From an uncultured Gammaproteobacteria bacterium (GTDB lineage: Bacteria; Patescibacteriota; Microgenomatia; Levybacterales; UBA12049), in the NCBI GenBank assembly GCA_964610465.1, contig CAZSWA010000006.1, forward strand, positions 4,332 through 68,331: 64,000 nucleotides of DNA, in the 5' to 3' direction. The notes beneath the pieces are model-generated. The model was not told the origin of the DNA. It worked only from the letters and a program-made list of their open reading frames with translations, and searched no databases. This document shows, one piece after another, positions 21,579 to 61,056 of the stretch. The position numbers and the translations under genes are program-made. Within the stretch, counting starts at the first letter, position 1, and each line of letters starts with the position of its first letter.

Positions 21579-21605
21579 TCCCGCAGATAACCCTGCGGGA
21601 TTTTT
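21579..21605 (+). terminator. Rho-independent terminator after the HicB cassette
   Basis: TCCCGCAG-ATAAC-CCTGCGGGA followed by TTTTT. Confidence 0.5.
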
Positions 21606-21626
21606 CATATTTGCCTATCCAATGAA

Positions 21627-22224: not shown

Positions 22225-22571
22225 TTACTTATTATAACATCTATGAAAATGTTTCTTCCACGACATTGTACCATCTTTTAAAGATGTGTAAACCTAATCG
22301 TTAGGCATCTATTCGTGTCTTCATCCACATGATTTCTGATTCAACGCCAATCAGAATCTTCAGGTCTTCCCAGTCAAAACGAACGAGAGCATATTACTAT
22401 CTCTCAGGTATAATAGCGGGACAAGGCTTGTTTTGATCGTTTCTCATATGATCTGTTTTCTTTAAGAACTGTATACACAATGAGACCAGTTTTTCTCGCA
22501 AGCGCTACTATTGCCTTCTTTTTCCCGGTTCAATAACTTAGCCTGTCAACAAATTGCTTGAACTTCTTTTT

Positions 22572-29494: not shown

Positions 29495-29727
29495 TGATTA
29501 TCGAAAACAAGTTTGATTATACGAAAAACAATGTGAGAATTGTGTAAGATGGGATACTATATTATGCCAGTTAATATTGTTGAACACATTTGAATTTCTT
29601 CGTTGTAAATAATATTGCTGAGTAAATTAAGGCGCTCTAATAGATCAAACACAGATTAAAAAAACGGAGATTGGCTGCGACATTAGAATCTATTTTATGA
29701 GTATTTAAATGTATTTCCTTGTAATTG

Positions 29728-29798
29728 CTGCGGAGCAGGGACTCGAACCCCAATAAACGGATCCAGATTCCGTTGTCCTACCATTAGACGACTCCGCA
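29728..29798 (-). tRNA. tRNA-Gln (anticodon CUG)
   Basis: Hand-folded cloverleaf: U1-A72 acceptor (7 bp), D stem GTCT/GGAC, anticodon stem ACGGA/TCCGT with loop ATCTGGA, T arm TGGGG-TTCGAGT-CCCTG, discriminator G; CCA not encoded. Confidence 0.8.
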
Positions 29799-39322: not shown

Positions 39323-40063
39323 ATGCAAATAAAAGTTATTACATGGAACATATGGCGTGGCAAATATCTTGATGGAGTTATTGATTTCTTAAAAAGTAGT
39401 AATGCTGATATTATCGGGCTTCAGGAAATAATAGAAGATGAAAGTCTAACAAGTCGGGAGAACTTAGCACAAATTATTGCCAAATCACTTGGATATAATT
39501 ATGTATATTGTAAGGCTTTTACTACAGATAGACATATGCCTATATATGATATAGGGAATGCAATACTTAGCAAGTACGAAATACAAAATACCATGTGTAT
39601 AGAATTAAGCGGATTGAGCGATTACAAAAGTGATTCTACAACCGAACCCCGTAATGCAATAAAAGCTGAGATTACTATTAATAATAGAACACTTACTATT
39701 CTTAATACACATCTTGCATACTCTCATGAACTTAAGCCGTTTGAGCTTCGAACAAAACAAGTAGAAAAATTAATTCCACCTATCAAGTCACAAAATACTA
39801 TTTTAATGGGAGATTTTAATAGTATGTTGGAAAATGAAGAAATGAAAAGAATACAAGAAGTTATTCCCAATGCAGATACGAGTACAGAAAAACAGGCAAC
39901 ATGGAGTGTCTACCCAACTGATTATAAAGGATTTATAGTGAAAGGACTTGAATATAGAATTGATAATATTTTTGTAAGTAATGACATTCGTGTAGTCAAT
40001 TTTGCGATAGAAAGTTCAAGAGCTTCTGATCATCTCCCAATAAGTGTCCTTGTTGAAATATAG
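39323..40063 (+). CDS. Endonuclease/exonuclease/phosphatase (EEP) family protein
   Basis: IKVITWNIWRG N-terminus and SDHLPISV C-terminus. Confidence 0.75.
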   Translation: MQIKVITWNIWRGKYLDGVIDFLKSSNADIIGLQEIIEDESLTSRENLAQIIAKSLGYNYVYCKAFTTDRHMPIYDIGNAILSKYEIQNTMCIELSGLSDYKSDSTTEPRNAIKAEITINNRTLTILNTHLAYSHELKPFELRTKQVEKLIPPIKSQNTILMGDFNSMLENEEMKRIQEVIPNADTSTEKQATWSVYPTDYKGFIVKGLEYRIDNIFVSNDIRVVNFAIESSRASDHLPISVLVEI

Positions 40064-40067
40064 CGAT

Positions 40068-40673
40068 ATGAATCTTAGAGTAGTAAAACCAACTGATACT
40101 ATCCTCCGTACAAAATGCAGTCCAGTTTCAAAAAAAGAATTACGTACAAAAAACATGCAAAATCTTATAGATGAATTGCTTAATTTCGTATATGGCAGCA
40201 GTAATAAAGGAAAAGAAAGAATTACAAAAAAACCAATGACAGTTGGTTTATCTGTCAATCAAGTAGGTATTCCCAAAAGGATAGCAATTGTTGATTTGGC
40301 AATTGGTAAGAAAACCTACAATGATTTATATGTACTTATAAATCCTGAAATCTTGTGGCATTCAAAAACACTCATTGAAAAAAGTGAAGGATGTGTTAAC
40401 CTACCTAACGTCTGGGGATATGTAAAACGATATAAAAAAATAAAAATAAAAGCACTTGATAGATCTGGAAATGAATTAATCCTTATGCTTCAAGGATAGC
40501 CCGCAATACTACTGCAGCATGAGATAGGACATCTCAATGGAGAACTGTTTATAGACAAACTTGAAAATCCACAAAAAGCACATCTGGTAAAAACCGGAGA
40601 ATATAAAGCATATAAAAAAACTAAAAAAAGCTGGAACAAATACATTGATATCTCATCATTAATTAAAAAATAA
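40068..40673 (+). pseudogene. def: Peptide deformylase interrupted by a single in-frame TAG (40497-40499); motif III QHEIGHLNG lies downstream of the stop
   Basis: Motif I GLSVNQVG and motif II EGCVNLP are in ORF 40044..40499; same frame continues PAILLQHEIGHLNGELFIDKL... to TAA at 40671-40673. Confidence 0.7.
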
Positions 40674-40685
40674 TATCCTCAATGT

Positions 40686-40733
40686 TTCTTTCTTAATCCT
40701 TACCGTTTTTTGGTTATTCTCTTATTGATAAGT
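40686..40733 (+). repeat. ~46-nt direct repeat, copy 1 (upstream of KGG gene)
   Basis: tctttcttaatccttaccgttttttggttattctcttattgataa vs copy 2 at 41039; ~85% identical. Confidence 0.5.
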
Positions 40734-41038: not shown

Positions 41039-41086
41039 TTCTTTCTCAATCCTTACGTTATTTTGGTTATTCTCTCATTCATAAAC
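41039..41086 (+). repeat. ~46-nt direct repeat, copy 2
   Basis: ttctttctcaatccttacgttattttggttattctctcattcataaa. Confidence 0.5.
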
Positions 41087-41916: not shown

Positions 41917-42603
41917 CTATAAGGAATAATCAAGTGTTGAGTGTTCTTGAGAAATAAATAGAATTTCTTCTTCCAGTTTTTTAATATTTCTTAACAATAA
42001 GAATTTCCCTTCCCGTGCCACAAAACCGGCTTTTTCTAACTTTTTCATCTCAAGTGATGTAGTTTCTCTTGTAATTCCAACAAGGGTTGCAATATCTTTA
42101 TGTGTAAGCGGGACTTTGAAAATAATACTATCTCCCTGTTCTTCACCAAAACGTTTTGCACAGATAAGTAATGTTGCTGCGACTTTTATGTAGGCATTAC
42201 TGCATACGAGATATTCCATTCTTGAAAGAAATCCATCAAACCGTACTAGAAGACGCGATGTGAGATCTTCATATACATCAGGATTATCTTTTATAAAATG
42301 CAGAAATTGTTCTTGTGGGGCGCTCCAGAGTTCAAGCGGAGTTATCGCTTCAAGATAATATGGATTGGTAATATTATTCATTCCATACGTAAGCGGAAAA
42401 AAATCATCAGGTTTAAGTATTGTTAAAGTAAGTTCTTCTCCTTGTTCTGAAAGTCTATATACTCGTACATATCCGCTTTTGATAAAAAATACGCTTGAGG
42501 AATTATCGTTAGCATGGAGAATCATACTGCGTTTTTTATATTTGAGGAGTTTATATTTTTGAAAAAATAAATTAATCTTAGATACCGAATTAAGTATCAA
42601 CAT
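41917..42603 (-). CDS. Crp/Fnr-family transcriptional regulator
   Basis: cNMP-binding beta-roll region plus C-terminal HTH (HKDIATLVGITRETTSLEMKKLE). Confidence 0.8.
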   Translation of the reverse strand: MLILNSVSKINLFFQKYKLLKYKKRSMILHANDNSSSVFFIKSGYVRVYRLSEQGEELTLTILKPDDFFPLTYGMNNITNPYYLEAITPLELWSAPQEQFLHFIKDNPDVYEDLTSRLLVRFDGFLSRMEYLVCSNAYIKVAATLLICAKRFGEEQGDSIIFKVPLTHKDIATLVGITRETTSLEMKKLEKAGFVAREGKFLLLRNIKKLEEEILFISQEHSTLDYSL

Positions 42604-42742
42604 ACTGTTTTCTCTAATCTTGTGTAATGCATCTTACAGACACGACATCATAATAAAATAAAAAAGCTGTAAGAAAAGTATAAGAAGGTATAAATATACA
42701 TATTGCATCCATAGGATTTTCTGATAAGATAATGAACACAAT

Positions 42743-43915
42743 ATGGATAATGTCATAGAAAAGATATATAACTGTACTTTAAAATTATTAGCATCTACAG
42801 ATACAAAAGAGTTATACAAATCAATTGTTGTGGAAGGAAAAGAACTGGTAAATGCAGAATTCGGATCAATTTATCTAGACAATAACGATACCTTTTCTTT
42901 AGCATATAGTTCATTACCATTTCTCAATAAATTTAAATTAAGACGTAATGGATTTGTACAAAAAACCTTTCAGACAAGGAAAATTGTTATTCTTCATGAG
43001 AAAGACATACTAAAAATACGGCCTGCCTTAGGTCGAAAAGCGATGCAGTCAGTAATTATGATCCCATTGTCCTATGTAAATAAATCAATTGGTGTGCTTT
43101 GTTTTAATTCTTCAAAGCAGGAACATTTTTCGGATAATGAGTTACATATATTAAAACTTTTTGGATCAATTGCCAGTCTCGCAATTACCAAAGCACACCA
43201 TCTTGATTCAGCAAAAAACGCCATAGAAATTAGAGATAGATTTATATCTCTTGCCTCTCATGAGCTAAGAACTCCTTTAACTTCTATTAACGGATATATT
43301 CAGCTTCTCTATGCGAAACTTGCAAATAAAGGTACTTCTGAATCCCGTTGGGTAGAAGAATTGTATAAAGAAAATATAAGACTGACAACCTTAATTAAAG
43401 AACTTTTAGATGTGAATAGAATAAAACAAGGTCAATTACACTTTGTTCTTAAAGAAGTAAATATTTTAGAGCTACTAGAAAAAGCAATAAAATTGATACA
43501 CGCCAATTATTCTGAAAGAGATGTCCAATTTAAAAACTTAGTAAAACAGAAAAATACTGTATTGGTCATTGGAGACTATGAGAAATTGCTTGATATTTTG
43601 AATGCGCTTCTCAATAACGCAGTAAAATTTTCTCCTCCTCATTCAAAAATAGTAGTAGCTATTGAATTAAAGGATCGTACAATTTTTATCCATATTAAAG
43701 ATAAAGGAAAAGGTATTCCCAAAAAAGATATTCCCAAAATTTTTGAAGGATTCTATAAACATAATATAGAACAATATAAAGAAGGAATGGGAGTCGGGTT
43801 GTTACTTGCAAAACATATTATTGAGTATCATAAAGGGAAATTGAGCATTATTTCAGAAGAAAATAAAGGGACAACAATTACAATAGAACTTCCGTCAATT
43901 CAATATACTCATTAA
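42743..43915 (+). CDS. GAF-domain sensor histidine kinase (soluble)
   Basis: GAF-like N-half, H-box HELRTPLTSINGYIQLL, HATPase_c (KDKGKGIP, GMGVGL). Confidence 0.8.
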   Translation: MDNVIEKIYNCTLKLLASTDTKELYKSIVVEGKELVNAEFGSIYLDNNDTFSLAYSSLPFLNKFKLRRNGFVQKTFQTRKIVILHEKDILKIRPALGRKAMQSVIMIPLSYVNKSIGVLCFNSSKQEHFSDNELHILKLFGSIASLAITKAHHLDSAKNAIEIRDRFISLASHELRTPLTSINGYIQLLYAKLANKGTSESRWVEELYKENIRLTTLIKELLDVNRIKQGQLHFVLKEVNILELLEKAIKLIHANYSERDVQFKNLVKQKNTVLVIGDYEKLLDILNALLNNAVKFSPPHSKIVVAIELKDRTIFIHIKDKGKGIPKKDIPKIFEGFYKHNIEQYKEGMGVGLLLAKHIIEYHKGKLSIISEENKGTTITIELPSIQYTH

Positions 43916-43946: not shown

Positions 43947-45563
43947 ATGATAAATAGCTTCATGAAAAGGAATTCAGGATTTACACTTATAGAACTTCTT
44001 ATAGTAATAGCAGTGTTATCTGTTATTTTGATATCTGTAATATTTTTTATGAATCCATTAGAAAATTTTGCAAAATCCCGTGATGCAGGAAGAATCAGTG
44101 AAGTAAATGAACTTGGAAGCGCTATCACAAGATTTATGACAAAAGGAAATTCTTCATATCCTATGTCTACACCAAACTGGCAGTCAACTATTCTTAAGGC
44201 AAATGCTGAGATAGCTGCTCCAATACAATCTACAGGAAGCAAATCATGTAACGCTGGCAACAATGAAGGTAATATTTGTTATATTTCAACAGGAGTTGAT
44301 GCAATTATCTGGACAAACGCAGAATCAAAAGCTGCTGCAATTATTGCTCAATGTCAACCAAATCAAGTTCCAGTGATTGCCTGGATAGCGTCTCAAGGCA
44401 GAACCGGATATACTTGTCTTGCAAATACTACTGCTGTTCCTTCTTCTGATGCCGCCAATAATATGTTTGATACTATTGTGTTATCTACTCCTAGTATAGT
44501 CATCGTATCAAATCAGCCGACTCCAACTCCTACTTCTACTCCATCAGGAGGAAGTATTATCATAATTTCATCATCAACAACTCCAAGCCCTACTCCTGTC
44601 AACAGAAATTATTACCCGGCTAATATCGATTTTCCTGCTTCAGGTGCTTATGGTCAGTATAGTCAAGCTGCTTTAAACAATCTAGGAATAAATGGGATAG
44701 ATATAAATATGAATTGGGTTGATGTAGAACCACAACAGGGAGTATATAACTTTGGACCAATTGACCAGGAAATAACAACATGGGTACAAGCGGGAAAGGA
44801 ATTTACTCTTGTCGTTCGTTATATTGCAGATACGGGTACCTGTACAGGTACACAATACATGCCACAATGGGAGATACAGCGCATTCCTCATTTTTGCGAT
44901 ACCTTAAAAGGAACTATAATTCCAAATTACTTTGATCAAACCTTTATCACCGATTTGGAAACATTTGTAAAAGCAATTGGCAGTCATTTTACCCAGAGTC
45001 CTTATAAAGCTAATTTAGCATATATTCGTGTTGGGTTAGGAGTAGCAGGAGAAGGATTCCCTATTTTTTCTTTAACAAGTAATCCTGATTGGTCACAACT
45101 TATAGCATATGGATATACTCCAGCTAGCTGGAGAGATTGGCAAAGAGCACGTATGGCCACTTTCAAAGCAGCATTTCCCTGGACAAAAGTTATTTATCCT
45201 ATTAATGTACAAGGTACAACTGATCCTGCCAACGGATTACCTTTACAGGTTTCTCAAGCTTATTGGGCCGCGGCAAATGGATTAGGAATTGGGTCTCAAA
45301 CTTTGTCACCAGGTTTTACCTATGCACAAATTAATACTATTGCTGCTTATATCAATAAAAATTATCCTGGGACTTACATCCAGTTTCAAACTAAAACAGG
45401 CGTAAATAGTAGTTCTACAGTTCAAGGAGATATACAAACAGCTCAAAACTATGGCGCAAGAAGTATTGAGTGGTATGAGAATGTTGTTGGGAACAATTCT
45501 TATACGCCTTTATTTCAGCAGTGGCAACAGTATGTGAACACAACATATGGGACAATGCCTTAA
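43947..45563 (+). CDS. Type IV pilin-like protein with Thr/Pro-rich linker and C-terminal glycoside-hydrolase-like TIM-barrel domain
   Basis: Prepilin signal KRNSG|FTLIELLIVIAVLSVIL (Gly-1, Phe+1, Glu+5); linker QPTPTPTSTPSGG...TTPSPTPV; C-domain motif NWVDVEPQQGVYNFGPIDQEI resembles GH5/GH42 family. Confidence 0.6.
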   Translation: MINSFMKRNSGFTLIELLIVIAVLSVILISVIFFMNPLENFAKSRDAGRISEVNELGSAITRFMTKGNSSYPMSTPNWQSTILKANAEIAAPIQSTGSKSCNAGNNEGNICYISTGVDAIIWTNAESKAAAIIAQCQPNQVPVIAWIASQGRTGYTCLANTTAVPSSDAANNMFDTIVLSTPSIVIVSNQPTPTPTSTPSGGSIIIISSSTTPSPTPVNRNYYPANIDFPASGAYGQYSQAALNNLGINGIDINMNWVDVEPQQGVYNFGPIDQEITTWVQAGKEFTLVVRYIADTGTCTGTQYMPQWEIQRIPHFCDTLKGTIIPNYFDQTFITDLETFVKAIGSHFTQSPYKANLAYIRVGLGVAGEGFPIFSLTSNPDWSQLIAYGYTPASWRDWQRARMATFKAAFPWTKVIYPINVQGTTDPANGLPLQVSQAYWAAANGLGIGSQTLSPGFTYAQINTIAAYINKNYPGTYIQFQTKTGVNSSSTVQGDIQTAQNYGARSIEWYENVVGNNSYTPLFQQWQQYVNTTYGTMP

Positions 45564-45573
45564 GCAAAGTTTC

Positions 45574-46245
45574 TTATTCTTTGATGACGTAGCCGAATCC
45601 ACGTACAGAGTGAAGGAGTTTTTTGGGATAGCCATTGTCAATTTTTTTTCTGAGGTAGCCCATGTAGACATCAACTACTCTGGTTTCTACTTCTGAGGAG
45701 TACAGCCAGATTCTACTTAAGATCATTTCTCGTGTTAATATTCTTCCTTTGTTACTCATTAAGTACTGAAGAAGTTTAAACTCCTGGGGAGTAAGTTGAA
45801 TAAGTTTTCCAGAGCGTTTAACCTCTAAGGTTTTATTATCTAACTCTAAATCATCAACTTTGAGCGTTGCATTGGTATCTCCTTGTTTTCTTAGCCTTGC
45901 TTTAATACGAGCTAAGAATTCATCAGCAACAAAAGGTTTGGTCATGTAATCATCAGCACCAAGGTTTAAGCCTTGAACAATATCATTGATGGAGTCTTTG
46001 GCAGTAAGAATGATGATAGGCAGGTCTTTATGTTTTTTTCTGATTTCCTGACACACTGCTTCACCACTCATGTTAGGAAGACCTAAATCAAGAACCACCA
46101 CATCCGGGTCTCCTTTTTTAAAGTATTCTAAAGCTTGAATACCATCTCCTACTGTATGCACAGCATACCCATTATCCAGCAACAACTCCTTCAAATACTT
46201 CTGCAATCCCTTATCATCTTCCACTACAAGTATTGTATGTACCAT
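45574..46245 (-). CDS. OmpR/PhoB-family response regulator (receiver + winged helix), copy A
   Basis: LVVEDD..., LDLGLP, TAKD receiver motifs; C-terminal wHTH VDVYMGYLRKK; ORF extends to 46284, start placed at MVHTILVVEDD. Confidence 0.85.
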   Translation of the reverse strand: MVHTILVVEDDKGLQKYLKELLLDNGYAVHTVGDGIQALEYFKKGDPDVVVLDLGLPNMSGEAVCQEIRKKHKDLPIIILTAKDSINDIVQGLNLGADDYMTKPFVADEFLARIKARLRKQGDTNATLKVDDLELDNKTLEVKRSGKLIQLTPQEFKLLQYLMSNKGRILTREMILSRIWLYSSEVETRVVDVYMGYLRKKIDNGYPKKLLHSVRGFGYVIKE

Positions 46246-46247
46246 AA
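45577..46247. repeat. Direct repeat A (~670 bp), near-identical to 50617..51287
   Basis: Sequence lines 45601-46227 match 50641-51267 base for base on inspection; boundaries approximate. Confidence 0.8.
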
Positions 46248-46402
46248 GTGCCCAAATTATAACAATATTTGTCCAGATTCTCAAAGGGGAAAATAAGAAA
46301 TGCGAAATAACCCTATATAAAATGTAAGAGTTTTGCTGCCGCGCTTGACTTCTCTTACCAATAGTTGTAGATTCTCTTACAATATTCTAATATTTAAATC
46401 AT

Positions 46403-47716
46403 ATGGATACTTACTCTTTACGAAACATGATTTATCAATCTATCCTAGAGCTTGCAACAGAAGAAGGAATAAATGCCTCCGGGAAAGAAGAAATATATGG
46501 ATGTATCTTTGGAAGAGATAGTTTTGTCACTATCCTTAAGATAATGAAATCACTTTCCAACACCAATTCAGCACCTTTTATTGAGACGCAATTACTTCTT
46601 GATATCTGCAGACGTTCACTTTTAACTCTTGTTCAGCTTCAAGGAAAAGAAACCAATATTGAAAGTGGAGAAGAACCTGGTAAATTTATCCATGAATACA
46701 GGAAAGAAAAATACGAAAGATTGGTCAATCGACCTGTCAAACCATGGTATCTCTATCCGGATAAAATTTTGCGTAATTATGACTCCATAGATTCTACACC
46801 TCTTGGACTTATTGCACTTTATAGATATTGGAATATAACTAAAGATGATACCTTTTTGCTACAAGTGTTACCAGCAGTTGAGTCTGGACTTAACTGGATT
46901 ATTACTTACGGAGATAAAGATAAAGATGGACTTATTGAGTATGAACTTCATAAAGAGAGAAAACATGGAGGATTGGTAGTACAATCCTGGACTGACTCTC
47001 ATGAATCAATTACTCAAGCTGATGGAAGATTTCCTGATTATCCAATCGCACCGGTTGAAGCACAAGGATATGCGTGGCTTGCTCTTAAACTCTGGTCTGA
47101 TTTTTATGCTGATACTTCCAGAAATTATGCCAAAACTGAAAATTTCGCTCACAAACTGGCAACTCAGGCAGAGCTCATGAAAAAACGATTTAATGAAATA
47201 TTTCTTTATGAGGATGAAGAACTGCTTTTCCCGGCTCAAGCACTTGACGGGAGCAAAAATCAATTACGCACAGTGACAGGGAATTCACTCCTTCTGCTTT
47301 GGGCGACATACTATAATAATGGTAAGTCCGAGTCAATTCTTGATGATACATTTATTCCTGATTTGGTGAAGCGTTCCTTTATGGATGATTTGTTTGACTC
47401 AGAAGCGGGTATCCGTACAATGAGTACAAAGGCTGCAACCTATATTTCAGGGCAAAATTCATACCATAATGGCAGTTTCTGGCCAAAGCTCAATGGTATG
47501 GTACATGAAGGACTTACAAACTGGAATTATTTGAAAGAAGCAGAGCATCTCAAAGAAGCAACCCTTAAACCTATTCAGTACTTTGGTACACCAATAGAAC
47601 TTTATGTGAAAGGAGAAAATGGAAACTATCTGCCATTTCGTAACTCTGCAGGCCGTGAAGGATGCAGGCAACAAGCCTGGTCAGCAGCTGTCGCCCTTGA
47701 TCTTCTAACCCTATAA
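46403..47716 (+). CDS. Amylo-alpha-1,6-glucosidase / glycogen-debranching-enzyme C-domain-like six-hairpin glycosidase
   Basis: GCIFGRDS motif near N-terminus and QAWSAA near C-terminus, as in GDE_C family. Confidence 0.55.
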   Translation: MDTYSLRNMIYQSILELATEEGINASGKEEIYGCIFGRDSFVTILKIMKSLSNTNSAPFIETQLLLDICRRSLLTLVQLQGKETNIESGEEPGKFIHEYRKEKYERLVNRPVKPWYLYPDKILRNYDSIDSTPLGLIALYRYWNITKDDTFLLQVLPAVESGLNWIITYGDKDKDGLIEYELHKERKHGGLVVQSWTDSHESITQADGRFPDYPIAPVEAQGYAWLALKLWSDFYADTSRNYAKTENFAHKLATQAELMKKRFNEIFLYEDEELLFPAQALDGSKNQLRTVTGNSLLLLWATYYNNGKSESILDDTFIPDLVKRSFMDDLFDSEAGIRTMSTKAATYISGQNSYHNGSFWPKLNGMVHEGLTNWNYLKEAEHLKEATLKPIQYFGTPIELYVKGENGNYLPFRNSAGREGCRQQAWSAAVALDLLTL

Positions 47717-47845
47717 CATTATAATTAACCTCAACTTAGTAGGAAACTTTGTCAGGTTTTAGTCATAGTTGTCAAGCATAATGGTCAAGGTGTTTCTACA
47801 ATTGCGATAATAATAGTATTAGTAAGGTAAATTACATCTTGTAGT

Positions 47846-50605
47846 ATGATAATAGAAGGTGATAGAAGACCTGATAATGGTTCTATCCATAACCAAAAAA
47901 TTCCCTTTGACACTCCTAAAATAGGAGATCCTCATGGAGAAGTTTCTGGTAGGATAGGATTTACAGAGTTGCAGCAACTCTATCAAGCTCCAAAAGAATC
48001 CCGTGAAGTAAAATCTCCAACAGGAAAAGAGTGGATGTTTGTAGTGGAAGGATATACTCCGGAAGATTCAATAGAAGAAGAACGAAGAGAAAGACTCCTG
48101 GCATTAGGAAACGGAAATTTTACGATTGAACAAAAAGGTATAGATGGTTCAATACATATGGTATATCAAAAAGGTTTTTACATGCGTAACTCGGAGTCAG
48201 AATCTTCTGATTCAAGTCCTGTTGCTGCTGCGTTTAATATCGCAGGTTTTGGACTCCATATCAATAACGGTGAGCATTTAAATCCACGTACTTCTGATTT
48301 ATCTGACATAAAGAGAGAATATGACTTACGTCATGCAACTCTTACCACTTCGTATACATGGCATGAGCATGATAAAGGTCAGGAAAGAAAAACTGATGTA
48401 GAAATTGAATTATTTGTGAGTCAAACAGACCCAAATATCATTGCAAGAAAAATAACACTTAAGCCAAATTATAATGGTTCGCTGACAGTGAAAATGGGTA
48501 TTGAAGGGAACGCAGATAATGGTGGTATAGATTTTGTTGAAGAAGCACAGACAGAAGAAGTAGATGCTAAGATAACCCATTATAGTGCAAAAGCAAGATC
48601 ACATACTGAAGTATCAAAACCCAAAGATATTGCAATCGCACATAAAATAGATACCAATAGTGATGATATACAAAGAAAAATACTGCATGAAAATAGAAGC
48701 ATACACCAGGATATTACTGTAGCTGAAGCAAAAGCAGGTCAACCGTTGGTATTTGAAGAAATTATCAGTCTGCATACGAGTGTTGACCAAAAGTATGGAG
48801 ATAAATTTGGATGTACACCAGGAGAAGCTGCAATAGCTGAAATTAAAGAGGTAAAAAATTATGATGAGCTTAAAAAAGCTCATATAAAAGCCTGGGATAC
48901 AATTTGGGAAGATTCTGAACTTGAAGTAGAAGGTGACCCTGAAGTTGTATTTGCGCATCATTTTAACCGTTCACATTCCTTACAAGATGAACGAGAAGGT
49001 TATGATGAAGGCAGCACTGGAGCAAAGTTTAATCCTAAGCCGAGAAAAGGGTATGGTAGGCGCTCATTTCATGATGATAGATATCGAGCCCATAAAAAAC
49101 CTGAACTTTTAGAAACACACTTAAACTTCCGAATGAAATTAATGGAAGCAGCAAGAAAAAAAGCCAAGAGAACCCTATATGATTTTCGAATGAGAACAGC
49201 AACAACAGATGAAGAACGGGCAAAAGCAGAAACGCTTTATCACTCAAACATTGATGAAGGAATCCATTTGCCCTGGGAAGCATACTCTCCACCAGAGGAC
49301 GGAGAAGACCCAGAAGGCGGTCCAAAATGGATAATAAATGCTAAAGGAGAAAAAGTTGAAGTAGAAGCACTAGAAGAAGAAATTCATATTAATGCTGCAT
49401 TTGTACGGCAGATAGTGGAGCTCTATCATATGACAGGAGATAAAGAAAAACTCAGGAAATTTGCTCCATTTATTTTGGAATCAGCAAGATTCTATTCACT
49501 TCGTGGTTCTGAAGATGGAGTATATCGTGGAGTTATGGGTACTAATGAATACCATCCTCATGTGGATAATAATGGTTTAACCCAGACATATAGTAAATAT
49601 ACTATTGATAAAGCGCTTTGGTTATTGCAAGAAGGAATTGTCACAGATGAACAAATAAAAGAATTACATCTTACACAAGAAGAACTAGATAAATGGGAAG
49701 ATATGAGACAAAAAATTCATATTCCTCTTAATACAAAGACAATGATACTTAGTGCATTTGATGGGTATGAAGAAAAACAACATATTGATTTAAACTCGCC
49801 AGAGTATAAAGGTGTTGTTGGAATGGATAGTTTTCTTCTAAAAAAAGGGATACATGTGAGAGACACTGATGTTATTAAACAACCTGATGCAACACTTGTA
49901 TTACGGGAACTTTATTATGATTTTCTCAATCTTCTTTCACCTGAACAACTTAAGGAATTACGATTGAATAATCCTGGAAAATCAGATAATGAGATAATGG
50001 CTCTTATTTTTAAGACCAATCAGAAGTACTATAGAGAACATACGTGTCATGGTTCATCTCTCTCTCCAAATGAAAATGTGATAGCAGATCTTTTGGCTGG
50101 TGAAGATCCAAATACTGTATTTGAAACATACAAAGAGACTATTGCTATGGATGTATCACACAAGAATACTCATAACACACAAGACGGGTTACATAGTGGA
50201 AATATAAATGCAGCAGAAAAAGCTTTAGATGAAGGCTATGGAGGTGTTACAATAAATAAAGACGGTATTCATATGATACCAAGACTTCCTGATGCTAGTA
50301 AAATCTCAGTTATTCGAAGTACTGAATATTATAATGGAAATAAAGTAGGGATTGAAGTAAATCAAAATACAAATAAAATTACTGCAACTGCACTGGAATT
50401 TGCGCAAGGTGAAGAAGGAAGTGTGCCTGTATACTTAAATGGCAATTTTATATCCCTTTCAAGGGAGCATCGAACTGAATCAGTTGCACTTAAAGATACA
50501 GCTCAAGAACAACAGGAAAAAACAATTTTCTCTTCTACGCCGAAATTACCACAATTTTCACTTCCTCAACAACCTATATTTAATGGACAAACCTACGCTC
50601 AATAA
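47846..50605 (+). CDS. Glycoside hydrolase family 65-like protein (disaccharide phosphorylase family) with large charged insertion
   Basis: GH65 N-domain signature EWMFVVEGYTPEDSIEEERRERLLALGNGNF; 919 aa with Lys/Arg/Glu-rich insert around residues 380-470. Confidence 0.55.
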   Translation: MIIEGDRRPDNGSIHNQKIPFDTPKIGDPHGEVSGRIGFTELQQLYQAPKESREVKSPTGKEWMFVVEGYTPEDSIEEERRERLLALGNGNFTIEQKGIDGSIHMVYQKGFYMRNSESESSDSSPVAAAFNIAGFGLHINNGEHLNPRTSDLSDIKREYDLRHATLTTSYTWHEHDKGQERKTDVEIELFVSQTDPNIIARKITLKPNYNGSLTVKMGIEGNADNGGIDFVEEAQTEEVDAKITHYSAKARSHTEVSKPKDIAIAHKIDTNSDDIQRKILHENRSIHQDITVAEAKAGQPLVFEEIISLHTSVDQKYGDKFGCTPGEAAIAEIKEVKNYDELKKAHIKAWDTIWEDSELEVEGDPEVVFAHHFNRSHSLQDEREGYDEGSTGAKFNPKPRKGYGRRSFHDDRYRAHKKPELLETHLNFRMKLMEAARKKAKRTLYDFRMRTATTDEERAKAETLYHSNIDEGIHLPWEAYSPPEDGEDPEGGPKWIINAKGEKVEVEALEEEIHINAAFVRQIVELYHMTGDKEKLRKFAPFILESARFYSLRGSEDGVYRGVMGTNEYHPHVDNNGLTQTYSKYTIDKALWLLQEGIVTDEQIKELHLTQEELDKWEDMRQKIHIPLNTKTMILSAFDGYEEKQHIDLNSPEYKGVVGMDSFLLKKGIHVRDTDVIKQPDATLVLRELYYDFLNLLSPEQLKELRLNNPGKSDNEIMALIFKTNQKYYREHTCHGSSLSPNENVIADLLAGEDPNTVFETYKETIAMDVSHKNTHNTQDGLHSGNINAAEKALDEGYGGVTINKDGIHMIPRLPDASKISVIRSTEYYNGNKVGIEVNQNTNKITATALEFAQGEEGSVPVYLNGNFISLSREHRTESVALKDTAQEQQEKTIFSSTPKLPQFSLPQQPIFNGQTYAQ

Positions 50606-51285
50606 TTACTTTTACTCTCTTTGATGACGTAGCCGAATCCACGTACAGAGTGAAGGAGTTTTTTGGGATAGCCATTGTCAATTTTTTTTCTGAGGTAGCC
50701 CATGTAGACATCAACTACTCTGGTTTCTACTTCTGAGGAGTACAGCCAGATTCTACTTAAGATCATTTCTCGTGTTAATATTCTTCCTTTGTTACTCATT
50801 AAGTACTGAAGAAGTTTAAACTCCTGGGGAGTAAGTTGAATAAGTTTTCCAGAGCGTTTAACCTCTAAGGTTTTATTATCTAACTCTAAATCATCAACTT
50901 TGAGCGTTGCATTGGTATCTCCTTGTTTTCTTAGCCTTGCTTTAATACGAGCTAAGAATTCATCAGCAACAAAAGGTTTGGTCATGTAATCATCAGCACC
51001 AAGGTTTAAGCCTTGAACAATATCATTGATGGAGTCTTTGGCAGTAAGAATGATGATAGGCAGGTCTTTATGTTTTTTTCTGATTTCCTGACACACTGCT
51101 TCACCACTCATGTTAGGAAGACCTAAATCAAGAACCACCACATCCGGGTCTCCTTTTTTAAAGTATTCTAAAGCTTGAATACCATCTCCTACTGTATGCA
51201 CAGCATACCCATTATCCAGCAACAACTCCTTCAAATACTTCTGCAATCCCTTATCATCTTCCACTACCAATGTAGTATTTACCAT
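50599..51285 (-). CDS. OmpR/PhoB-family response regulator, copy B
   Basis: Protein identical to copy A from residue 6 onward except for the C-terminal extension SKSNY. Confidence 0.85.
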   Translation of the reverse strand: MVNTTLVVEDDKGLQKYLKELLLDNGYAVHTVGDGIQALEYFKKGDPDVVVLDLGLPNMSGEAVCQEIRKKHKDLPIIILTAKDSINDIVQGLNLGADDYMTKPFVADEFLARIKARLRKQGDTNATLKVDDLELDNKTLEVKRSGKLIQLTPQEFKLLQYLMSNKGRILTREMILSRIWLYSSEVETRVVDVYMGYLRKKIDNGYPKKLLHSVRGFGYVIKESKSNY

Positions 51286-51287
51286 TA
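50617..51287. repeat. Direct repeat B (~670 bp)
   Basis: See repeat A. Confidence 0.8.
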
Positions 51288-51486
51288 CTCGAAATTATAA
51301 CAAATAAATAGAGACTTACAAGAGAAATGATACATTTCTTGCAATCTTATTACAGAAAGTAAGAGATTTATTACCAAATTATCATACTAGCTCTTCTGTT
51401 TTACAGAAAGCACTGATAATAGAAAGAAAATGTACTATGTTTTTACATATTTCTTACGCTCTAATAGTTGCATTTTTACAAAAAAC

Positions 51487-51514
51487 TTGACAAAATAAAA
51501 TATTTTGGTATAAT
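51487..51514 (+). promoter_or_regulatory. Sigma-70-type promoter upstream of the GH18 gene
   Basis: TTGACA -35, 16-nt spacer, TGgTATAAT extended -10; about 80 nt upstream of ATG 51593. Confidence 0.45.
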
Positions 51515-51592: not shown

Positions 51593-52951
51593 ATGGATTT
51601 GAAACTGCCCGGTTATAGACAAAAACAATTTATACGATTCTTACAACAAAACGGTACTTCCACAAGTGCATATAAGAAAAAAAGCCTACTAGTCTCTCTT
51701 GAATACATTTGGGCATTTCTCATTTGTGCATTTACGCTTCTCACACTTCTTCTTTTTTATGTCCCAATGACCCATACAAACAAAAGTAAATTTGTTTCAC
51801 CAATGGTTCTCGACTGGAAAAAGACTAATCTTAAACCACTTACCCAAAGTAAAAAAGGATATGAAGTATTTGGATTTGCACCCTATTGGACAATTAATAA
51901 ACTTGATAATGTTGATTTTAGTACATTGACCACTTTTTCTTACTTTGGCGTACCAGTTGATGCATATGGTAATTTGCAAAGAGATGATCAAGGGTATCTT
52001 ACATTTATAAGTGATAAGGCAAGTGATATCTTCAAAAAAGCTCATGCAACAAATACTAGAGTTGTCTTGACTGTTACCCAAATGGATAATTATTCTATTG
52101 CGTCTCTTCTTGATAATCCTGATGCACAAGCTAACGCGATTTCCCAAATAGTAACTGAAGTAAAAAATCGCGGTATCGATGGAGTAAACGTGGATTTTGA
52201 ATATGTAGGCGATCCAGGAGACGGATATCGTACAGAGTTTACCAATTTTGTGAGTAACTTAACTGATAAGCTGCATCAGCAAGTACCAAACTCAAAAGTA
52301 ACAGTATCTGTATATGCTCTTTCAGTACGCGATCCAAAACTCTACAATATTGCAAGTCTTGCAAAACATACGGACGGAATTTTTATGATGGCTTATGATT
52401 TTGCAGGAGTTGGTGCTGACAATGCGATGCCTACTGCCCCATTATATGGATACAATCAAGGAAAATATCCATATGATGTATCAACTGCGGTAAATGATTT
52501 TCTTAAAGTAATGCCATCTGAAAAACTCATTCTTGGAGTCCCGTATTATGGATATAACTATCTGGTTTATCAACCTCAAGTAAATAGCCAAACGCTTCCC
52601 TATTGGACATGGAAAGGTCAGCCAATGACACAGACATATTCTATCGCACAAGATGATATCCAGCCAACCATGGATGGTGTTGACGCGTATACCACTGGTT
52701 GGGATGCTGTAGGGGATGTAGGATACAAAGCCTATCATGATACGTATAACGATACCTGGAGAATGATATTTGTAGAAGATACCAAATCACTGGGGATGAA
52801 ATATGACTTCGCAAAAAATAAAAATCTTGCTGGAATAGGAATTTGGGCTCTTGGATTTGATGATGGTAAAAAGGAACTATGGGCATTATTACGACAAAAA
52901 TTCGGAGAGAAATTAGCTGATAGCAGAGGAGCAAACTATGGAACAAATTGA
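51593..52951 (+). CDS. Glycoside hydrolase family 18 (chitinase-like) protein, membrane-anchored
   Basis: N-terminal TM; catalytic motif DGVNVDFEY (DxxDxDxE). Confidence 0.7.
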   Translation: MDLKLPGYRQKQFIRFLQQNGTSTSAYKKKSLLVSLEYIWAFLICAFTLLTLLLFYVPMTHTNKSKFVSPMVLDWKKTNLKPLTQSKKGYEVFGFAPYWTINKLDNVDFSTLTTFSYFGVPVDAYGNLQRDDQGYLTFISDKASDIFKKAHATNTRVVLTVTQMDNYSIASLLDNPDAQANAISQIVTEVKNRGIDGVNVDFEYVGDPGDGYRTEFTNFVSNLTDKLHQQVPNSKVTVSVYALSVRDPKLYNIASLAKHTDGIFMMAYDFAGVGADNAMPTAPLYGYNQGKYPYDVSTAVNDFLKVMPSEKLILGVPYYGYNYLVYQPQVNSQTLPYWTWKGQPMTQTYSIAQDDIQPTMDGVDAYTTGWDAVGDVGYKAYHDTYNDTWRMIFVEDTKSLGMKYDFAKNKNLAGIGIWALGFDDGKKELWALLRQKFGEKLADSRGANYGTN

Positions 52952-54032
52952 AAAGATCTTACAAATAATTGAAGAGAATATCTCATTTTCACCTTTTCAA
53001 ATACGTATTTTTATCGGTACCTGCACTGCCATGTTTATCATGGTAGTATTGCAACATTTGGGTATTCAATCTCCGCTTAGGTTACAAAAATTAATTTCAC
53101 CAATTACTAAAAAAACAGATATTTTTATGACAATTCGTCAAAAACTTGATGGGAAACCTACTCAATATAAATTGCATGGACAATCATCACTTATCCAAAG
53201 CACATACGCTGCTTCAGATTACGATTCAGCCAATTCATATGCAGTGATAGATTTTGATTCAGGGAATGTTCTTGCACAGAAAGATATCAGTAAAAAAATT
53301 TCTATTGCCTCTCTCACTAAGCTTATGACTGCTGTTGTGGCACTTGATCTCACATCACCTGATGAGGTTTTTACCGTTACTCCGACTGCTGCAAATATGC
53401 CTCCCACAAAACTTGGACTTACTCCTGGTGAAAAATTAACACTTTATGAATTATTGCATGGTGCACTTATGACATCTGCCAATGATGCAGCAGAGGAGAT
53501 AAAAGATGGAATTAATCAAAAATATAACTCTGATATTTTTGTACGGGCAATGAATGAAAAAGCACAATTTTTAGGACTCAAAAACTCTAACTTTACCAAC
53601 CCGCAAGGACTTGATTGGGGCGATAATTATAGTAGCGTAGAGGATTTGGCAATACTTACAAATTATGCATTTACCAATTATCCTTTAATTTCAGAGATTG
53701 TCCAAAAAGATTTCCAGCATTTTGCAGCCAATGAAAACCACCCTCAAATGGATTTAAACAATTGGAACGGGTTGTTGGATGTATATCCAGATACAAAAGG
53801 AGTAAAGATAGGCAATACCAGAGCTGCCGGATATACCACAATTGCATTGTCTAACAGGGGAGGAAAAAGAATACTTGCAGTAGTACTAGGTGCTCCCGGA
53901 ATTTTACAAAGGGATCTATGGGCATCTGAACTTTTGGATTTGGGATACCAAAAGACGTTAAACCTTGATCCCATAAATATAACAGAGAGTCAACTAAAAG
54001 AAAAATATAACAGTTGGCAGTATTGGAATTAA
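52938..54032 (+). CDS. Serine-type D-Ala-D-Ala carboxypeptidase (peptidase S11), second paralogue
   Basis: SxxK (ASLTK), SxN (SANDAA), K(T/I)G (KIGNT); overlaps GH18 gene by 14 nt. Confidence 0.7.
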   Translation: MEQIEKILQIIEENISFSPFQIRIFIGTCTAMFIMVVLQHLGIQSPLRLQKLISPITKKTDIFMTIRQKLDGKPTQYKLHGQSSLIQSTYAASDYDSANSYAVIDFDSGNVLAQKDISKKISIASLTKLMTAVVALDLTSPDEVFTVTPTAANMPPTKLGLTPGEKLTLYELLHGALMTSANDAAEEIKDGINQKYNSDIFVRAMNEKAQFLGLKNSNFTNPQGLDWGDNYSSVEDLAILTNYAFTNYPLISEIVQKDFQHFAANENHPQMDLNNWNGLLDVYPDTKGVKIGNTRAAGYTTIALSNRGGKRILAVVLGAPGILQRDLWASELLDLGYQKTLNLDPINITESQLKEKYNSWQYWN

Positions 54033-54281
54033 AACTTTGTAAATAATCAAAAGATTTGAAAGGTGGTGAAGATTGATGAAGGAGTTTATAAGAAGATTGA
54101 TTAGTATATTTGGAAGAAAACCAGCCTACGCGCCAGTACGAGTGAGATAGTTTTTTTGCTTTTTTTACATTTTCCTCATGTGATATCTTCTATTATCTTG
54201 TATTCTCAAGATAAATCTTACAAATTTTTTTCAATTCCTTTACAAAGTAAACAGTATTGTATAGGTATACTTTTCACAAAA

Positions 54282-56423
54282 ATGAAACACCTAACTGCTC
54301 TTATCTATCCATACAAAACTGAACTATTAATTTCTTCAATAGCAATACTCGGTTTTGTGTTATTTATTCCTGTGTTTACCTATGTCTATTTTGCCAATGA
54401 TTTAAAAAGTAAAGATGCAATCATGAACAGGAATAATACAGGGATTATTTTAACTGATAGAAATAACAAACCATTTTTTACGTTTTATCAAGCAAAATAT
54501 ACAAGTTCTGTTTCCCTTTCTCAAATACCGGCGTTTGTGCAGGAAGCGGTTATTGCCTCAGAAGATAAAGATTTTTATCATCACTCAGGATTCTCATTCG
54601 TATCAATTATTCGTGCTTCATTATATGATTTGCTTCATCAGGATGTAAGTTATGGCGGCTCTACAATTACTCAGCAATTAGTAAAAAATGCCCTGTTAAA
54701 TTCCAATAAAAATTTTTTGCGAAAATATCAAGAACTGGTACTTGCACAAGAAATTGAAAGACGGTATAGCAAACAAGAGATTCTGGAAATGTATTTGAAT
54801 TCCGTATATCTTGGAGAAGGAGCATTTGGAGTTGATAATGCCGCACTCACTTATTTTGGCAAGCATGCAAAAGACCTCACTCTTGCACAAACAAGTTTTT
54901 TGGCTGCAATTCTCCCATCACCTTCAACTTTGTCTCCTTTTACTGGAAGTATTTTACAAGCAAAAGTGAGGCAAAGGATAGTTCTTGAAAAAATGTATGA
55001 GCAAAACTACATTAACAAATATCAAGAATTGCAGGCAGAAAAAGAACAGCTTACTTTTAATAATTCTAATCAAGATATCAATTCCTATGCTCCGCATTTT
55101 GCGCTCATGGTTCGGGACGAGCTTATAAAAAAATATGGTGAGGAATATATTTCCCGCTCAGGATTTCGAGTACGAACTACACTAGATCTTGAGAAACAAA
55201 AAGTTGCAGAACAAGCGGTCAAAAAACAAGTCACAAATCTCGCTCTCGATAATGTATCAAACGGCGCAGCGGTTGCAATTGATCCAAAAACCGGAGAAAT
55301 ACTTGCGCTTGTTGGGAGTACCAACTGGTATGATAATAAATTTGGCAAAATGAATCTGGCTACTACCCCTCGTTCTGTTGGTTCTTCCTTTAAACCTATC
55401 GTGTACTCGGCAGCTTTTGAAGAACATCTCATTACCCCTGCGACACTACTTCATGATGTGCCAACGGTATTTCCCGGAGGATATGCTCCTCTTGATTATG
55501 ATAGAAAATTTAGAGGAAGTGTAACAGTACGACGGGCATTATCAAATTCTCTCAATGTTCCAGCAGTTGAAGTAATGACAAAAGTAGGTTTACCTAACGC
55601 TCTTGCAATGGCAAAGAGACTTGGTGTCACATCACTTGGTGATCCATCAAACTACGGTTTGTCTCTTGTTCTTGGCACAGGTGAAGTTCCTCTTGTTGAG
55701 CTTACTGATGCTTATGCTGTTTTTGCCAACAATGGAATACATAATCAACCAGTAACAATACTTGATATTTATAATAAATACAATACAAAAGTGTATTACT
55801 ACAAACCAAAACCTCAGCAAGTGCTAAGTCCGGCTGTTGCATTTCTTATCTCATTAATTCTTTCTGATAACAACGCACGGGCTGAAGAATTTGGAAATTT
55901 GTTAACTATTTCACGGCCTGCTGCGGTTAAAACGGGTACGGCAGAGGATTATAAAGATGCATTAACTATCGGCTATACTCCAAGTCTTGTCGTTGGAGTA
56001 TGGGTTGGCAACAATGATAATAGCGTGATGGATAGTGTTGCAGGTTCCCTTGGGGCTGCGCCAATTTGGAAAGATATGATGGAAAATTATTTAGCAAATA
56101 CGATAGTTGAAAATTTTTCTCCGCCATCAGATATTGTACAAGCAAATGTTTGTGGCAATGGAACTGTAATACGAGATGGAAACAGAATATCATACGGTCA
56201 GACAGAGTATTTTATAAAAGGTACACAGCCTATCAATACTTTTTGTACTGTAGCTCCAAGAATTGCATTTCCAAATGGGGTAATTCCATCTCAGCAGCCT
56301 TTTCCAAATTACCAAAATCAAAGTCCAGATACCCAAAATATTGGTAAGGAAATACAAAAAAGAATACATGAGGAAATAAAGCAAACAGAACAAGCCAGAA
56401 AAACCAATGCTATATCTGAATAA
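54282..56423 (+). CDS. Class A penicillin-binding protein (bifunctional transglycosylase/transpeptidase, PBP1A family)
   Basis: GT51 motifs EDKDFYHHSGF, GGSTITQQLVKN; transpeptidase SVGSSFKP, SNS, KTGT; start placed at MKHLTAL. Confidence 0.85.
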   Translation: MKHLTALIYPYKTELLISSIAILGFVLFIPVFTYVYFANDLKSKDAIMNRNNTGIILTDRNNKPFFTFYQAKYTSSVSLSQIPAFVQEAVIASEDKDFYHHSGFSFVSIIRASLYDLLHQDVSYGGSTITQQLVKNALLNSNKNFLRKYQELVLAQEIERRYSKQEILEMYLNSVYLGEGAFGVDNAALTYFGKHAKDLTLAQTSFLAAILPSPSTLSPFTGSILQAKVRQRIVLEKMYEQNYINKYQELQAEKEQLTFNNSNQDINSYAPHFALMVRDELIKKYGEEYISRSGFRVRTTLDLEKQKVAEQAVKKQVTNLALDNVSNGAAVAIDPKTGEILALVGSTNWYDNKFGKMNLATTPRSVGSSFKPIVYSAAFEEHLITPATLLHDVPTVFPGGYAPLDYDRKFRGSVTVRRALSNSLNVPAVEVMTKVGLPNALAMAKRLGVTSLGDPSNYGLSLVLGTGEVPLVELTDAYAVFANNGIHNQPVTILDIYNKYNTKVYYYKPKPQQVLSPAVAFLISLILSDNNARAEEFGNLLTISRPAAVKTGTAEDYKDALTIGYTPSLVVGVWVGNNDNSVMDSVAGSLGAAPIWKDMMENYLANTIVENFSPPSDIVQANVCGNGTVIRDGNRISYGQTEYFIKGTQPINTFCTVAPRIAFPNGVIPSQQPFPNYQNQSPDTQNIGKEIQKRIHEEIKQTEQARKTNAISE

Positions 56424-60401: not shown

Positions 60402-61056
60402 ATGGGGTTTGTAAAAGTAACACCAAAAGAGATAAGAGATGAAATTCTTGCGAAAGTAAAAGCGGGAGAAAGAGTCGCGGCTCTTGTAAAGCAGTATGGA
60501 CTATCTGATAGAATAATTTATGGATGGCTGCATAAAACCACAGGAGAAGGAACTGTTTCCATATGATTTATGGGTTTCAGACGTAAGTTTTCTAAAATTT
60601 CAAGGAAGATTCTGGTATTTAGTAACCATTGAAGAGATTGTAAACAGAAGGATTATTGGAGCGCATGTTGGCAAAAAACATGATAGGTATTTAGTATTAA
60701 CCGCTGTAAAAGAAGTCCTCATTCAAACAAAAGAAGCTCCTTCAATTTTTCATTCTGATCAAGGCACAGAATTTATGGCAGAGGAGGTAACTTCCTTTTT
60801 GAAAAACTTAGGAACTCAAATTTCAGCCTCTGACAAAGCAAGTTCCTGGCAAAACGGCTATCAAGAAAGTTTCTTTGGACGCTTTAAAGATGAAATTGGA
60901 GATATAAATCGCTTTGACACTATTGGAGAATTAATTGAAGAAATTTATCTGCATATCCACTATTACAATACTCAAAGAATTTATACCGCATTAGAAATGC
61001 CACCCGCCGTTTACGCAAATGCTCTCAGAGCATTGTCGGAAAAAATGGGTACTTGA
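60402..61056 (+). mobile_element. Degenerate IS3-family insertion-sequence remnant (truncated OrfA HTH plus frameshifted OrfB integrase-core fragment)
   Basis: OrfA' 60402..60566 MGFVKVTPKEIRDEILAKVKAGERVAALVKQYGLSDRIIYGWLHK (HTH), no leucine zipper or frameshift window; no terminal inverted repeats recognised by eye. Confidence 0.7.
60520..61056 (+). pseudogene. IS3-family transposase OrfB (rve integrase core) fragment
   Basis: DLWVSDVSFLKF..., HSDQGTEF, NGYQESFFGRFKDE = DDE catalytic-core region. Confidence 0.65.

Follow-up and report, generated by a model that had tools for sequence, protein, structure and literature searches.

A perfect 650-bp direct repeat shared by two OmpR/PhoB-type response regulator genes in an uncultivated Microgenomates-type bacterium: a recombination mosaic with gene conversion as its probable source

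The DNA analyzed here is a 64,000-nt stretch from an uncultured bacterium (GTDB lineage Patescibacteriota; Microgenomatia; Levybacterales), taken from contig CAZSWA010000006.1 of GenBank assembly GCA_964610465.1 (positions 4,332 to 68,331). We refer to this whole 64-kb stretch as the window; all positions are in window coordinates, and a stated strand is that of the gene. The locus of interest contains two complete minus-strand open reading frames (ORFs) for OmpR/PhoB-type response regulators, RR1 (45574..46245, 223 aa, reading MVHTILVV...VIKE-stop) and RR2 (50599..51285, 228 aa, reading MVNTTLVV...VIKESKSNY-stop). Between them lie two plus-strand genes, as the original prediction had stated, one for a 437-aa GDE_C/MGH1-like glycoside hydrolase (hereafter GDE; 46403..47716) and one for a 919-aa GH65-like protein (47846..50605). 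The two regulator genes share a long tract without a single mismatch, which ends abruptly within DNA that is homologous yet clearly diverged.

Comparison of every position i with position i+5040 returned a single unbroken run of identity, 45578-46227 = 50618-51267, comprising 650 bp in direct orientation with 0 mismatches. The two copies are thus offset by 5,040 bp and separated by 4,390 bp of unique DNA, and a repeat search of the window recovered this pair as its sole long repeat. Copy A (45578..46227, minus strand) covers RR1 from codon 7 through the second base of codon 223, and copy B (50618..51267, minus strand) is the same tract within RR2. The original prediction had described near-identical repeats of ~670 bp beginning at 45577 and ending at 46247. 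The identical pair is real when checked base by base, but its length is 650 bp, and position 45577 is itself a mismatch. Divergence was correctly placed at the extreme ends of the genes, where the differences between RR1 and RR2 are confined to codons 3, 4, 5, 6, and 223 plus a 5-aa tail. In codons 3-6 there are 5-6 nucleotide differences, which change two amino acids (H3N and I5T) and leave codons 4 and 6 synonymous. The third base of codon 223 also differs, and the stop codon is lost in RR2, adding the five residues SKSNY; through this extension RR2 overlaps the convergent GH65-like gene by 7 nt at the latter's 3′ terminus.

That each copy encodes a complete regulator was borne out by domain searches, which found a receiver domain (PF00072, E 5e-31 and 2e-30 in the two proteins) and a winged-helix domain (PF00486, Trans_reg_C, E 7e-25 in both copies). 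The best solved matches, all full-length, were PhoP (PDB 5ed4/3r0j), PrrA, MtrA, and RegX3 of Mycobacterium tuberculosis, with E values of 1e-44 to 1e-50. Receiver residues D10, D11, D53, T81, and K103 are present in both copies and all fall within the identical tract. Because these functional residues and the entire DNA-binding domain are the same in RR1 and RR2, the two proteins should be phosphorylated by the same kinase, a GAF-type histidine kinase encoded nearby, and should bind the same DNA sites, a prediction from domain identity.

The two boundaries of the tract differ in character. On the genes' 5′ side, the tract ends abruptly inside a longer stretch of diverged homology: 0 of 650 positions differ within it, whereas 5-6 of the 12 nt that follow in this reading frame differ, and 13-14 of the 20 nt past the tract match. 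Beyond this boundary the start codon occupies the same frame and position, ATGGTA is common to both genes, and 13 of 18 nt match over codons 1-6. Farther upstream, both genes have the extended −10 12-mer TTGTTATAATTT (its score was reached by 4 of 500 shuffles of the proximal 60 nt), followed by spacers to the ATG that are 10 nt long in RR1 and 8 nt in RR2, a 2-nt indel, and unrelated in sequence. No similarity was detected upstream beyond the −10 box, the score over the full intergenic regions being reached by 64 of 500 shuffles. On the 3′ side, identity stops at the last codon, which is also where detectable homology ends; no similarity was detected downstream of the copies (124 of 500 shuffles reached the score). 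As a conjecture, the RR2 tail can be derived from GAG-TAA through a 2-nt slip. In all, the identical tract fills 650 of ~695 homologous bases.

The promoter-like sites of the two genes are themselves alike. That of RR1 (46256..46284, minus strand) reads TTGAGA-17 nt-TGT-TATAAT, with 11/12 consensus matches and an extended −10 placed 10 nt before the ATG; that of RR2 (51294..51321, minus strand) reads TTGTAA-16 nt-TGT-TATAAT, with 10/12 matches and 8 nt before the ATG. The sequence TGnTATAAT, at 46256-46264 for RR1 and 51294-51302 for RR2, also stands 8-10 nt before the regulator ATG in four relatives (contigs L003, L009, L088, and L090). A −10 element only 8-10 nt from the start codon leaves no room for a Shine-Dalgarno sequence, which suggests that the regulator transcripts may be leaderless or nearly so and that this is conserved in relatives. 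Given the shared start codon and frame and a family-typical −10 element that recurs in relatives, the RR2 5′ end is, as judged from its sequence, a genuine diverged member of the regulator family rather than random DNA. Inside a single reading frame, divergence jumps from 0% to ~30-50%, which marks a recombination tract and not uniform divergence after duplication; on this nucleotide pattern the locus is a recombination mosaic.

The original prediction had also raised the possibility that the repeat is an assembly collapse. This was examined in Logan, which holds assemblies of public read sets at k=31 (k−1 = 30 nt). Contig L001 corresponds to window positions 46198-50647, i.e., 4,390 bp of unique sequence flanked by 30 nt of repeat at either end. 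Contig L002 begins at 51238, likewise 30 nt into the repeat, and runs without mismatch to 62951, the end of the retrieved locus. At three junctions out of four, Logan contigs therefore end exactly 30 nt into the repeat, and both L001 and L002 recur in six read sets (SRR12266077 and five sister runs). Since the read graph branches exactly at the assembled repeat borders, the repeat is not a product of assembly collapse. In addition, cluster membership records place both regulator proteins on one 71,808-bp NCBI contig; an exact protein look-up of RR1 returned no record. Only two structures are permitted by the graph, namely the assembled path or a one-copy chromosome accompanied by a 5,040-bp circle. 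As such a circle would carry no replication function, the assembled path is preferred, and the tandem structure is the sensible reading.

The exact identity of the two copies is far out of line with how the regulator has diverged among related genomes. RR1 and its orthologues in L003, L088, and L090 are 87-90% identical as proteins and 73-75% identical as nucleotides, and at third codon positions identity is down to 42-46%. By comparison, the neighboring Crp, kinase, GDE, GH18, S11, SBP, and adenylosuccinate synthetase (AdSS) proteins in relatives are only 46-70% identical, so the regulator is, by this measure, an exceptionally constrained transcription factor. With the synonymous sites of orthologues saturated, purifying selection cannot yield 650 identical bases; third-position identity of 42-46% to orthologues rules out selection, and likewise chance, as the cause. 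The copies are instead 100% identical over 650 bp and closer to each other than to their orthologues to a degree beyond selection, in keeping with the very recent recombination event proposed originally. All sampled orthologues have the termini MV(H/Y/Q)T(I/V)LVV and VIKE-stop, as does RR1, while both ends of RR2 deviate. No protein >90% identical to the regulator was found outside this organism in 5.8 billion protein clusters; a scan of genome contigs with RR1 added at least three lineage relatives (L008-L010). As a separate observation, the GC content at third codon positions (GC3) of RR1, 0.34, is the highest among the 41 ORFs with composition analyzed.

Seven of seven relatives with readable context (L003, L008, L010, L088, L090, L093/L094, and the JGI contig that carries P0014) hold a single regulator of this kind. 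It adjoins a Crp-type regulator and, except in L093/L094, a histidine kinase, which is of GAF type where a sensor is detectable. Written in window orientation, with HK for histidine kinase, RR for response regulator, def for peptide deformylase, IS for insertion sequence, and a slash on the 5′ side of the regulator, the gene orders are Crp-HK-RR/def-GH18-S11-HK-RR-AdSS in L003; Crp-HK-RR/GT4-GDE-GH65-SBP-SBP-HK in the P0014 contig; Crp-HK-RR/GDE followed at a remove by SBP-SBP-HK-RR in L090; HK-x-x-RR/368-aa ORF-GDE-GH18-S11-PBP1a in L010; HK-RR/GH18-S11-PBP1a in L008; HK-RR with an IS directly upstream in L088; and Crp-RR/GDE-GH18-S11-PBP1a-SBP in L093/L094. The window reads Crp-HK-pilin-RR1/GDE-GH65-RR2/GH18-S11-PBP1a-SBP-HK-RR. 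Its order is thus that of L093 plus the GH65-like gene, RR2, and a pilin-like gene between the kinase and RR1. In the synteny comparison suggested with the original prediction, GH65 and RR2 are thus missing from L093/L094 and each of the seven relatives has one regulator, but GDE is present in L093/L094 as the ancestral neighbor.

The GDE-like gene, whose closest solved relative is the archaeal-type debranching enzyme 7vma, matched over 100 relatives with 63-71% identity. Many of these apparently share contigs with regulator orthologues and are divergently adjacent to them, so that GDE appears as the ancestral divergent neighbor of the regulator. Its composition (GC 0.38, GC3 0.28) and that of the GH65-like gene (GC 0.36, GC3 0.20) both lie inside the normal range of the window, as does their codon usage, which correlates at 0.88-0.90 with the remaining window. 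Given GDE's usual place and this native composition, the bracketed genes are not an imported cassette, contrary to the mobile carbohydrate module envisaged originally; what is new here is the second regulator copy, together with GH65.

The GH65-like protein itself has N-terminal and catalytic domains (PF03636, E 2e-27; PF03632, E 4e-41), with kojibiose phosphorylase and the 4ktp/4ktr chains as best solved matches; the C-terminal domain PF03633 was not detected, though most homologues carry one. An exhaustive search of 1.8 billion cluster representatives found ~10 clusters of 860-910-aa proteins at 30-38% identity, the nearest given as 34%. A word-indexed homologue search returned nothing above 25% identity, and a scan of genome contigs gave no confirmed relative. 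Scanning metagenomes with patterns from an alignment of these proteins, which were too generic, retrieved only ordinary GH65 genes at 22-26% identity.

Outside the repeats, a plus-strand row of genes for GH18, a D-Ala-D-Ala carboxypeptidase (S11), and PBP1a (51593..56423) diverges from RR2; in relatives it directly follows the regulator or GDE. Its promoter (51487-51514) matches the consensus at 12/12 positions. On the other side, the GAF-HisKA-HATPase histidine kinase (42743..43915, plus strand) is presumed from its placement to be the cognate kinase of the regulator, as kinase and regulator genes are convergent and adjoining in relatives (L010 excepted). A Crp/Fnr-type regulator (41917..42603, minus strand) is a conserved member of this Crp-HK-RR neighborhood. 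Wedged between the kinase and RR1 is the pilin-like gene (43947..45563, plus strand, 538 aa, with an N_methyl motif), which is absent at this spot in the relatives examined; L010 has two other genes inserted there. The codon-usage correlation of the pilin-like gene, 0.69, is the lowest of the neighborhood.

Two further observations concern the regulator's surroundings in relatives. In L088, an IS seems to have inserted into the regulatory region: a 362-aa rve-family gene (6905-7993) stands immediately upstream of the regulator and parts it from a candidate operator at 6678-6695. The peptide deformylase gene is located beyond Crp in the window (40044-40499) and between the regulator and GH18 in L003 (9360-9902), which is more evidence of frequent rearrangement in this neighborhood.

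The wider window has typical chromosomal content, with a GC content of 35.8% and genes for SecDF, an HtrA-like protease, a tRNA nucleotidyltransferase/poly(A) polymerase-family protein, RecJ, PBP1a, adenylosuccinate synthetase, and aminoacyl-tRNA synthetases of class II and Glu/Gln type. Among the matches listed, the closest named relatives of the regulator and GDE are Microgenomates-type bacteria of the Candidate Phyla Radiation (CPR), e.g., Daviesbacteria and Levybacteria. Rfam and tRNA scans of the window gave one match, a tRNA-Gln at 29727-29798 that has no bearing on the locus. Small ORFs only are found at 20900-22300, where a 68-aa ORF (21283-21489) looks HicB-antitoxin-like by eye and Rfam had no match. 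A lone 178-aa rve (integrase core) fragment at 60520-61056, probably an IS remnant, lies between a single-domain response regulator and adenylosuccinate synthetase and has no partner repeat in the window.

Comparison of upstream regions yielded a candidate operator, a 7-4-7 direct repeat of the form GTAAGAA-N4-GTAAGAA-like. The Pho box bound by PhoB has the same geometry, with two 7-bp direct repeats and a 4-bp spacer. The pattern GTAAGANNNNNGNAANAA, allowing at most one mismatch, has 14 matches in the window where 2.85 are expected, a count that none of 100 shuffles reached, although whole-window shuffles ignore that AT-rich spacers favor A-rich motifs; conserved placement across relatives may therefore be regarded as a stronger argument than the count. 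In the RR2-GH18 intergenic region there are two such boxes on the minus strand: GTAAGAAATATGTAAAAA (51440-51457), a perfect pattern match ~30 nt upstream of the GH18 promoter, and GTAATAAGATTGCAAGAA (51336-51353), which abuts the RR2 −35 hexamer. The RR1-GDE intergenic region has a weaker form, two in-phase GTAAGAG heptamers 22 nt apart (46352..46380, minus strand) over the likely GDE promoter, and a further candidate is found in the Crp-HK intergenic region (42669-42686).

Placement in relatives follows the same lines. The candidate operator stands in sense orientation 55-130 nt ahead of the regulator gene in L003, L008, L009, L010, and L090; it lies in or beside the Crp-HK spacer in the window, L003, L090, and L010; and it stands twice before small KGG and Transgly_assoc (GlsB/YmgE-like) stress genes in the window, L003, and L088. 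In the window, these stress-gene operators, at 40686-40703 and 41039-41056, sit inside a 46-nt duplicated promoter segment (40686-40731 and 41039-41084). The positions in relatives are 9941, 11919, 13368, and 13732 in L003; 9873 in L008; 9903 and 13724 in L010; 9985 and 10890 in L088; and 7880 and 9880 in L090. Together, the Pho-box-like repeats outline a candidate regulon that the conserved regulator may control across Microgenomates-like genomes.

We consider it probable that two homologous regulator copies existed and that one was recently overwritten by the other through gene conversion, a mechanism that we infer along with its direction and regulatory consequences. On this account, two regulator genes of different age or origin would have stood 5 kb apart in direct orientation, and homologous recombination would have replaced one with the other from codon 7 to the last codon. 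Conversion would have spared a 3′ junction that lacks homology and, at the 5′ end, an older diverged stretch made up of codons 3-6, the −10-to-ATG spacer, and the DNA upstream. RR1, situated beside the GAF kinase and divergent from GDE, would be the positional and sequence-canonical orthologue, and RR2 and the GH65-like gene would be a lineage-specific addition. The ancestral row (regulator/GDE-GH18-S11-PBP1a-SBP) would thereby have been split in two, each half headed by its own regulator, promoter, and candidate operator. Such a duplication may double regulator dosage and give the distal cell-wall genes (GH18, S11, and PBP1a) their own regulator-plus-operator module.

Several points weigh against gene conversion. 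Paralogues at the same places were found in none of the seven relatives with readable context, all single-copy, which weakens the case for a long-standing pair; these relatives are distant (46-70% identity for neighboring proteins) and give no date for the origin of RR2, such that the pair may be older but lineage-specific. The 3′ end of the tract falls within ~1-6 nt of where detectable homology ceases, and because classical two-sided conversion needs homology on both sides, this boundary resembles a rearrangement junction. The evidence for a diverged 5′ end spans only ~45 nt. The direction of conversion is ambiguous, RR2 having the better operator match and RR1 the canonical termini. Finally, the outer-left junction between the pilin-like gene and RR1 has the submitted contig as its sole basis; the pilin-like protein, the kinase, and the Crp protein gave no match when looked up exactly, probably because genes were called differently or the collection has gaps.

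The main rival account, which we judge unlikely, accommodates both the 3′ boundary and the lack of two-copy relatives; it supposes no earlier paralogue but one recent rearrangement anchored in homology. DNA with a diverged orthologue and its neighbors, from a related strain of differing gene order (RR/GH18-S11-PBP1a versus RR/GDE-GH65), would have entered with a crossover near codon 7 and an illegitimate join at the stop codon, duplicating the resident core in the same step, in a Campbell-like event or by homology-facilitated illegitimate recombination between sister copies. All boundaries then follow: a duplicated resident core, a 5′ switch at the crossover, and a stop codon destroyed at the illegitimate junction. 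Both gene orders that it needs are seen in relatives, RR/GH18-S11-PBP1a in L008 (GH18-S11 also in L003, with def intervening) and RR/GT4-GDE-GH65 in the P0014 contig, and the region 5′ of the regulator is variable among them. Yet the crossover must have fallen at the extreme edge of the core, since elsewhere the two cores would differ; a close donor is needed, and the protein-cluster search contains none above 90% identity; and neither the bracketed nor the flanking genes show compositional signs of recent import. The locus does share with Campbell integration a repeat-insert-repeat layout in direct orientation, revertible or amplifiable, and direct duplication is what we found. It differs in that the insert is not foreign, GDE being ancestral. 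The circular intermediate integrated into a resident regulator, as first proposed, is not supported in its simple form: Campbell insertion of a foreign circle alone does not give a 100% identical core beside a homologous 5′ end diverged by ~30%, and an extra assumption is needed. Nor are the two copies recognizable as complementary hybrids, RR1 having both canonical termini and RR2 both deviant ones; in L093/L094, which are distant relatives, the locus has GDE but lacks GH65 and RR2.

An artefact of assembly or population structure, in which a one-copy chromosome (pilin-like gene, hybrid regulator, GH18) coexists with the 5,040-bp circle (regulator-GDE-GH65) or strains are mixed, is improbable. 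The Logan graph, with one repeat node, two entries, and two exits, would fit a deletion product plus circle equally, and the outer-left junction was not re-found by exact protein look-ups; but a 5-kb circle that holds only a regulator and two glycoside-hydrolase-type genes has nothing for replication or mobilization and could not persist, the same contigs appear in six read sets, and GDE sits beside the regulator in the chromosomes of many relatives. Both regulators are moreover on one 71.8-kb NCBI contig, and collapse merges copies rather than making two. Least credible of all is a composite mobile element or cassette in which regulator copies serve as flanking repeats that move a GDE-GH65 module between genomes. 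Two long identical sequences do surround a cargo in direct orientation, as in composite transposons (IS-cargo-IS), the GH65-like gene lacks a close relative (best cluster representative 34%), and an rve integrase fragment lies 9 kb off. That fragment, the sole integrase-like ORF, is, however, single, truncated, and unrelated to the repeat, and the flanking units are a host regulator gene, coding for neither transposase nor recombinase. No inverted repeats were found in the region, and the outer flanks TTTCTTAT and CAATGTAG share nothing, with no target-site duplication. GDE is an ancestral neighbor of native composition, and the unit was found nowhere a second time, its exact form being present only in this organism's read sets. 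A composite element, to which the arrangement was likened originally, is thus not supported, and the cassette interpretation should be dropped. There is, lastly, a slim chance that the ultra-conserved regulator acts as a portable homology anchor, such that adjoining glycan and cell-wall blocks are swapped, captured, deleted, or amplified by recombination within the gene; the two copies would then be a trapped intermediate or a selected copy-number switch for GDE-GH65. If this is true, organisms poor in mobile elements would have a way of exchanging cassettes without any IS.

Gene conversion between duplicate genes has precedents in bacteria. The tufA and tufB genes of Salmonella undergo gene conversion, and bacterial paralogues show concerted evolution (PMC5485169; PMC6053082). 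Recurrent concerted evolution was reported for 26 prokaryotic genes, without mention of response regulators or two-component systems (PMC6053082). The present pair resembles tufA/tufB in having two constrained copies per chromosome that are near-identical over the coding region, with unrelated flanks and tracts that reach the limits of homology, and RecA-type homologous recombination is the presumed engine. It differs in that the copies are direct repeats 5 kb apart, the gene encodes a transcription factor, and one tract end coincides with an apparent rearrangement junction; it also differs from recurrent concerted evolution in coming from one genome only. As regulators, RR1 and RR2 have the receiver plus winged helix of E. 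coli PhoB and of PhoP, PrrA, MtrA, and RegX3 of M. tuberculosis, and their candidate operator has Pho-box geometry; the box abutting the RR2 −35 hexamer is placed as in autoregulated members. In contrast to those systems, the heptamer GTAAGAA of the candidate operator is specific to this CPR lineage, the sensor of the partner kinase is a cytoplasmic GAF domain, and there is a fixed neighbor of Crp type.

Whatever its origin, a perfect 650-bp direct repeat should be a substrate for RecA-type deletion or amplification of the GDE-GH65 segment. The predicted proneness of the 4.4 kb to recombinational loss is supported to this extent, as following from the repeat itself. Deletion would leave an MVNTT...VIKE-stop hybrid and the RR/GH18 order, like that of L003 and L008, and variation in copy number of the 4.4-kb segment between strains or cells is plausible. 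A practical consequence is that short-read assemblies will break at this locus.

The underlying process is well known, and the finding is explained by ordinary recombination and of modest interest. We nevertheless know of little direct evidence of intragenomic homologous recombination in CPR bacteria, and the locus offers a clean, assembly-independent example of paralogue homogenization in an uncultivated member of this group. To our knowledge, almost no regulation has been characterized in this lineage. Perhaps more useful to specialists, the candidate set of regulator and operators, which takes in the regulator itself, its kinase and Crp partners, two stress genes, and cell-wall and glycan genes, constitutes a testable regulon.

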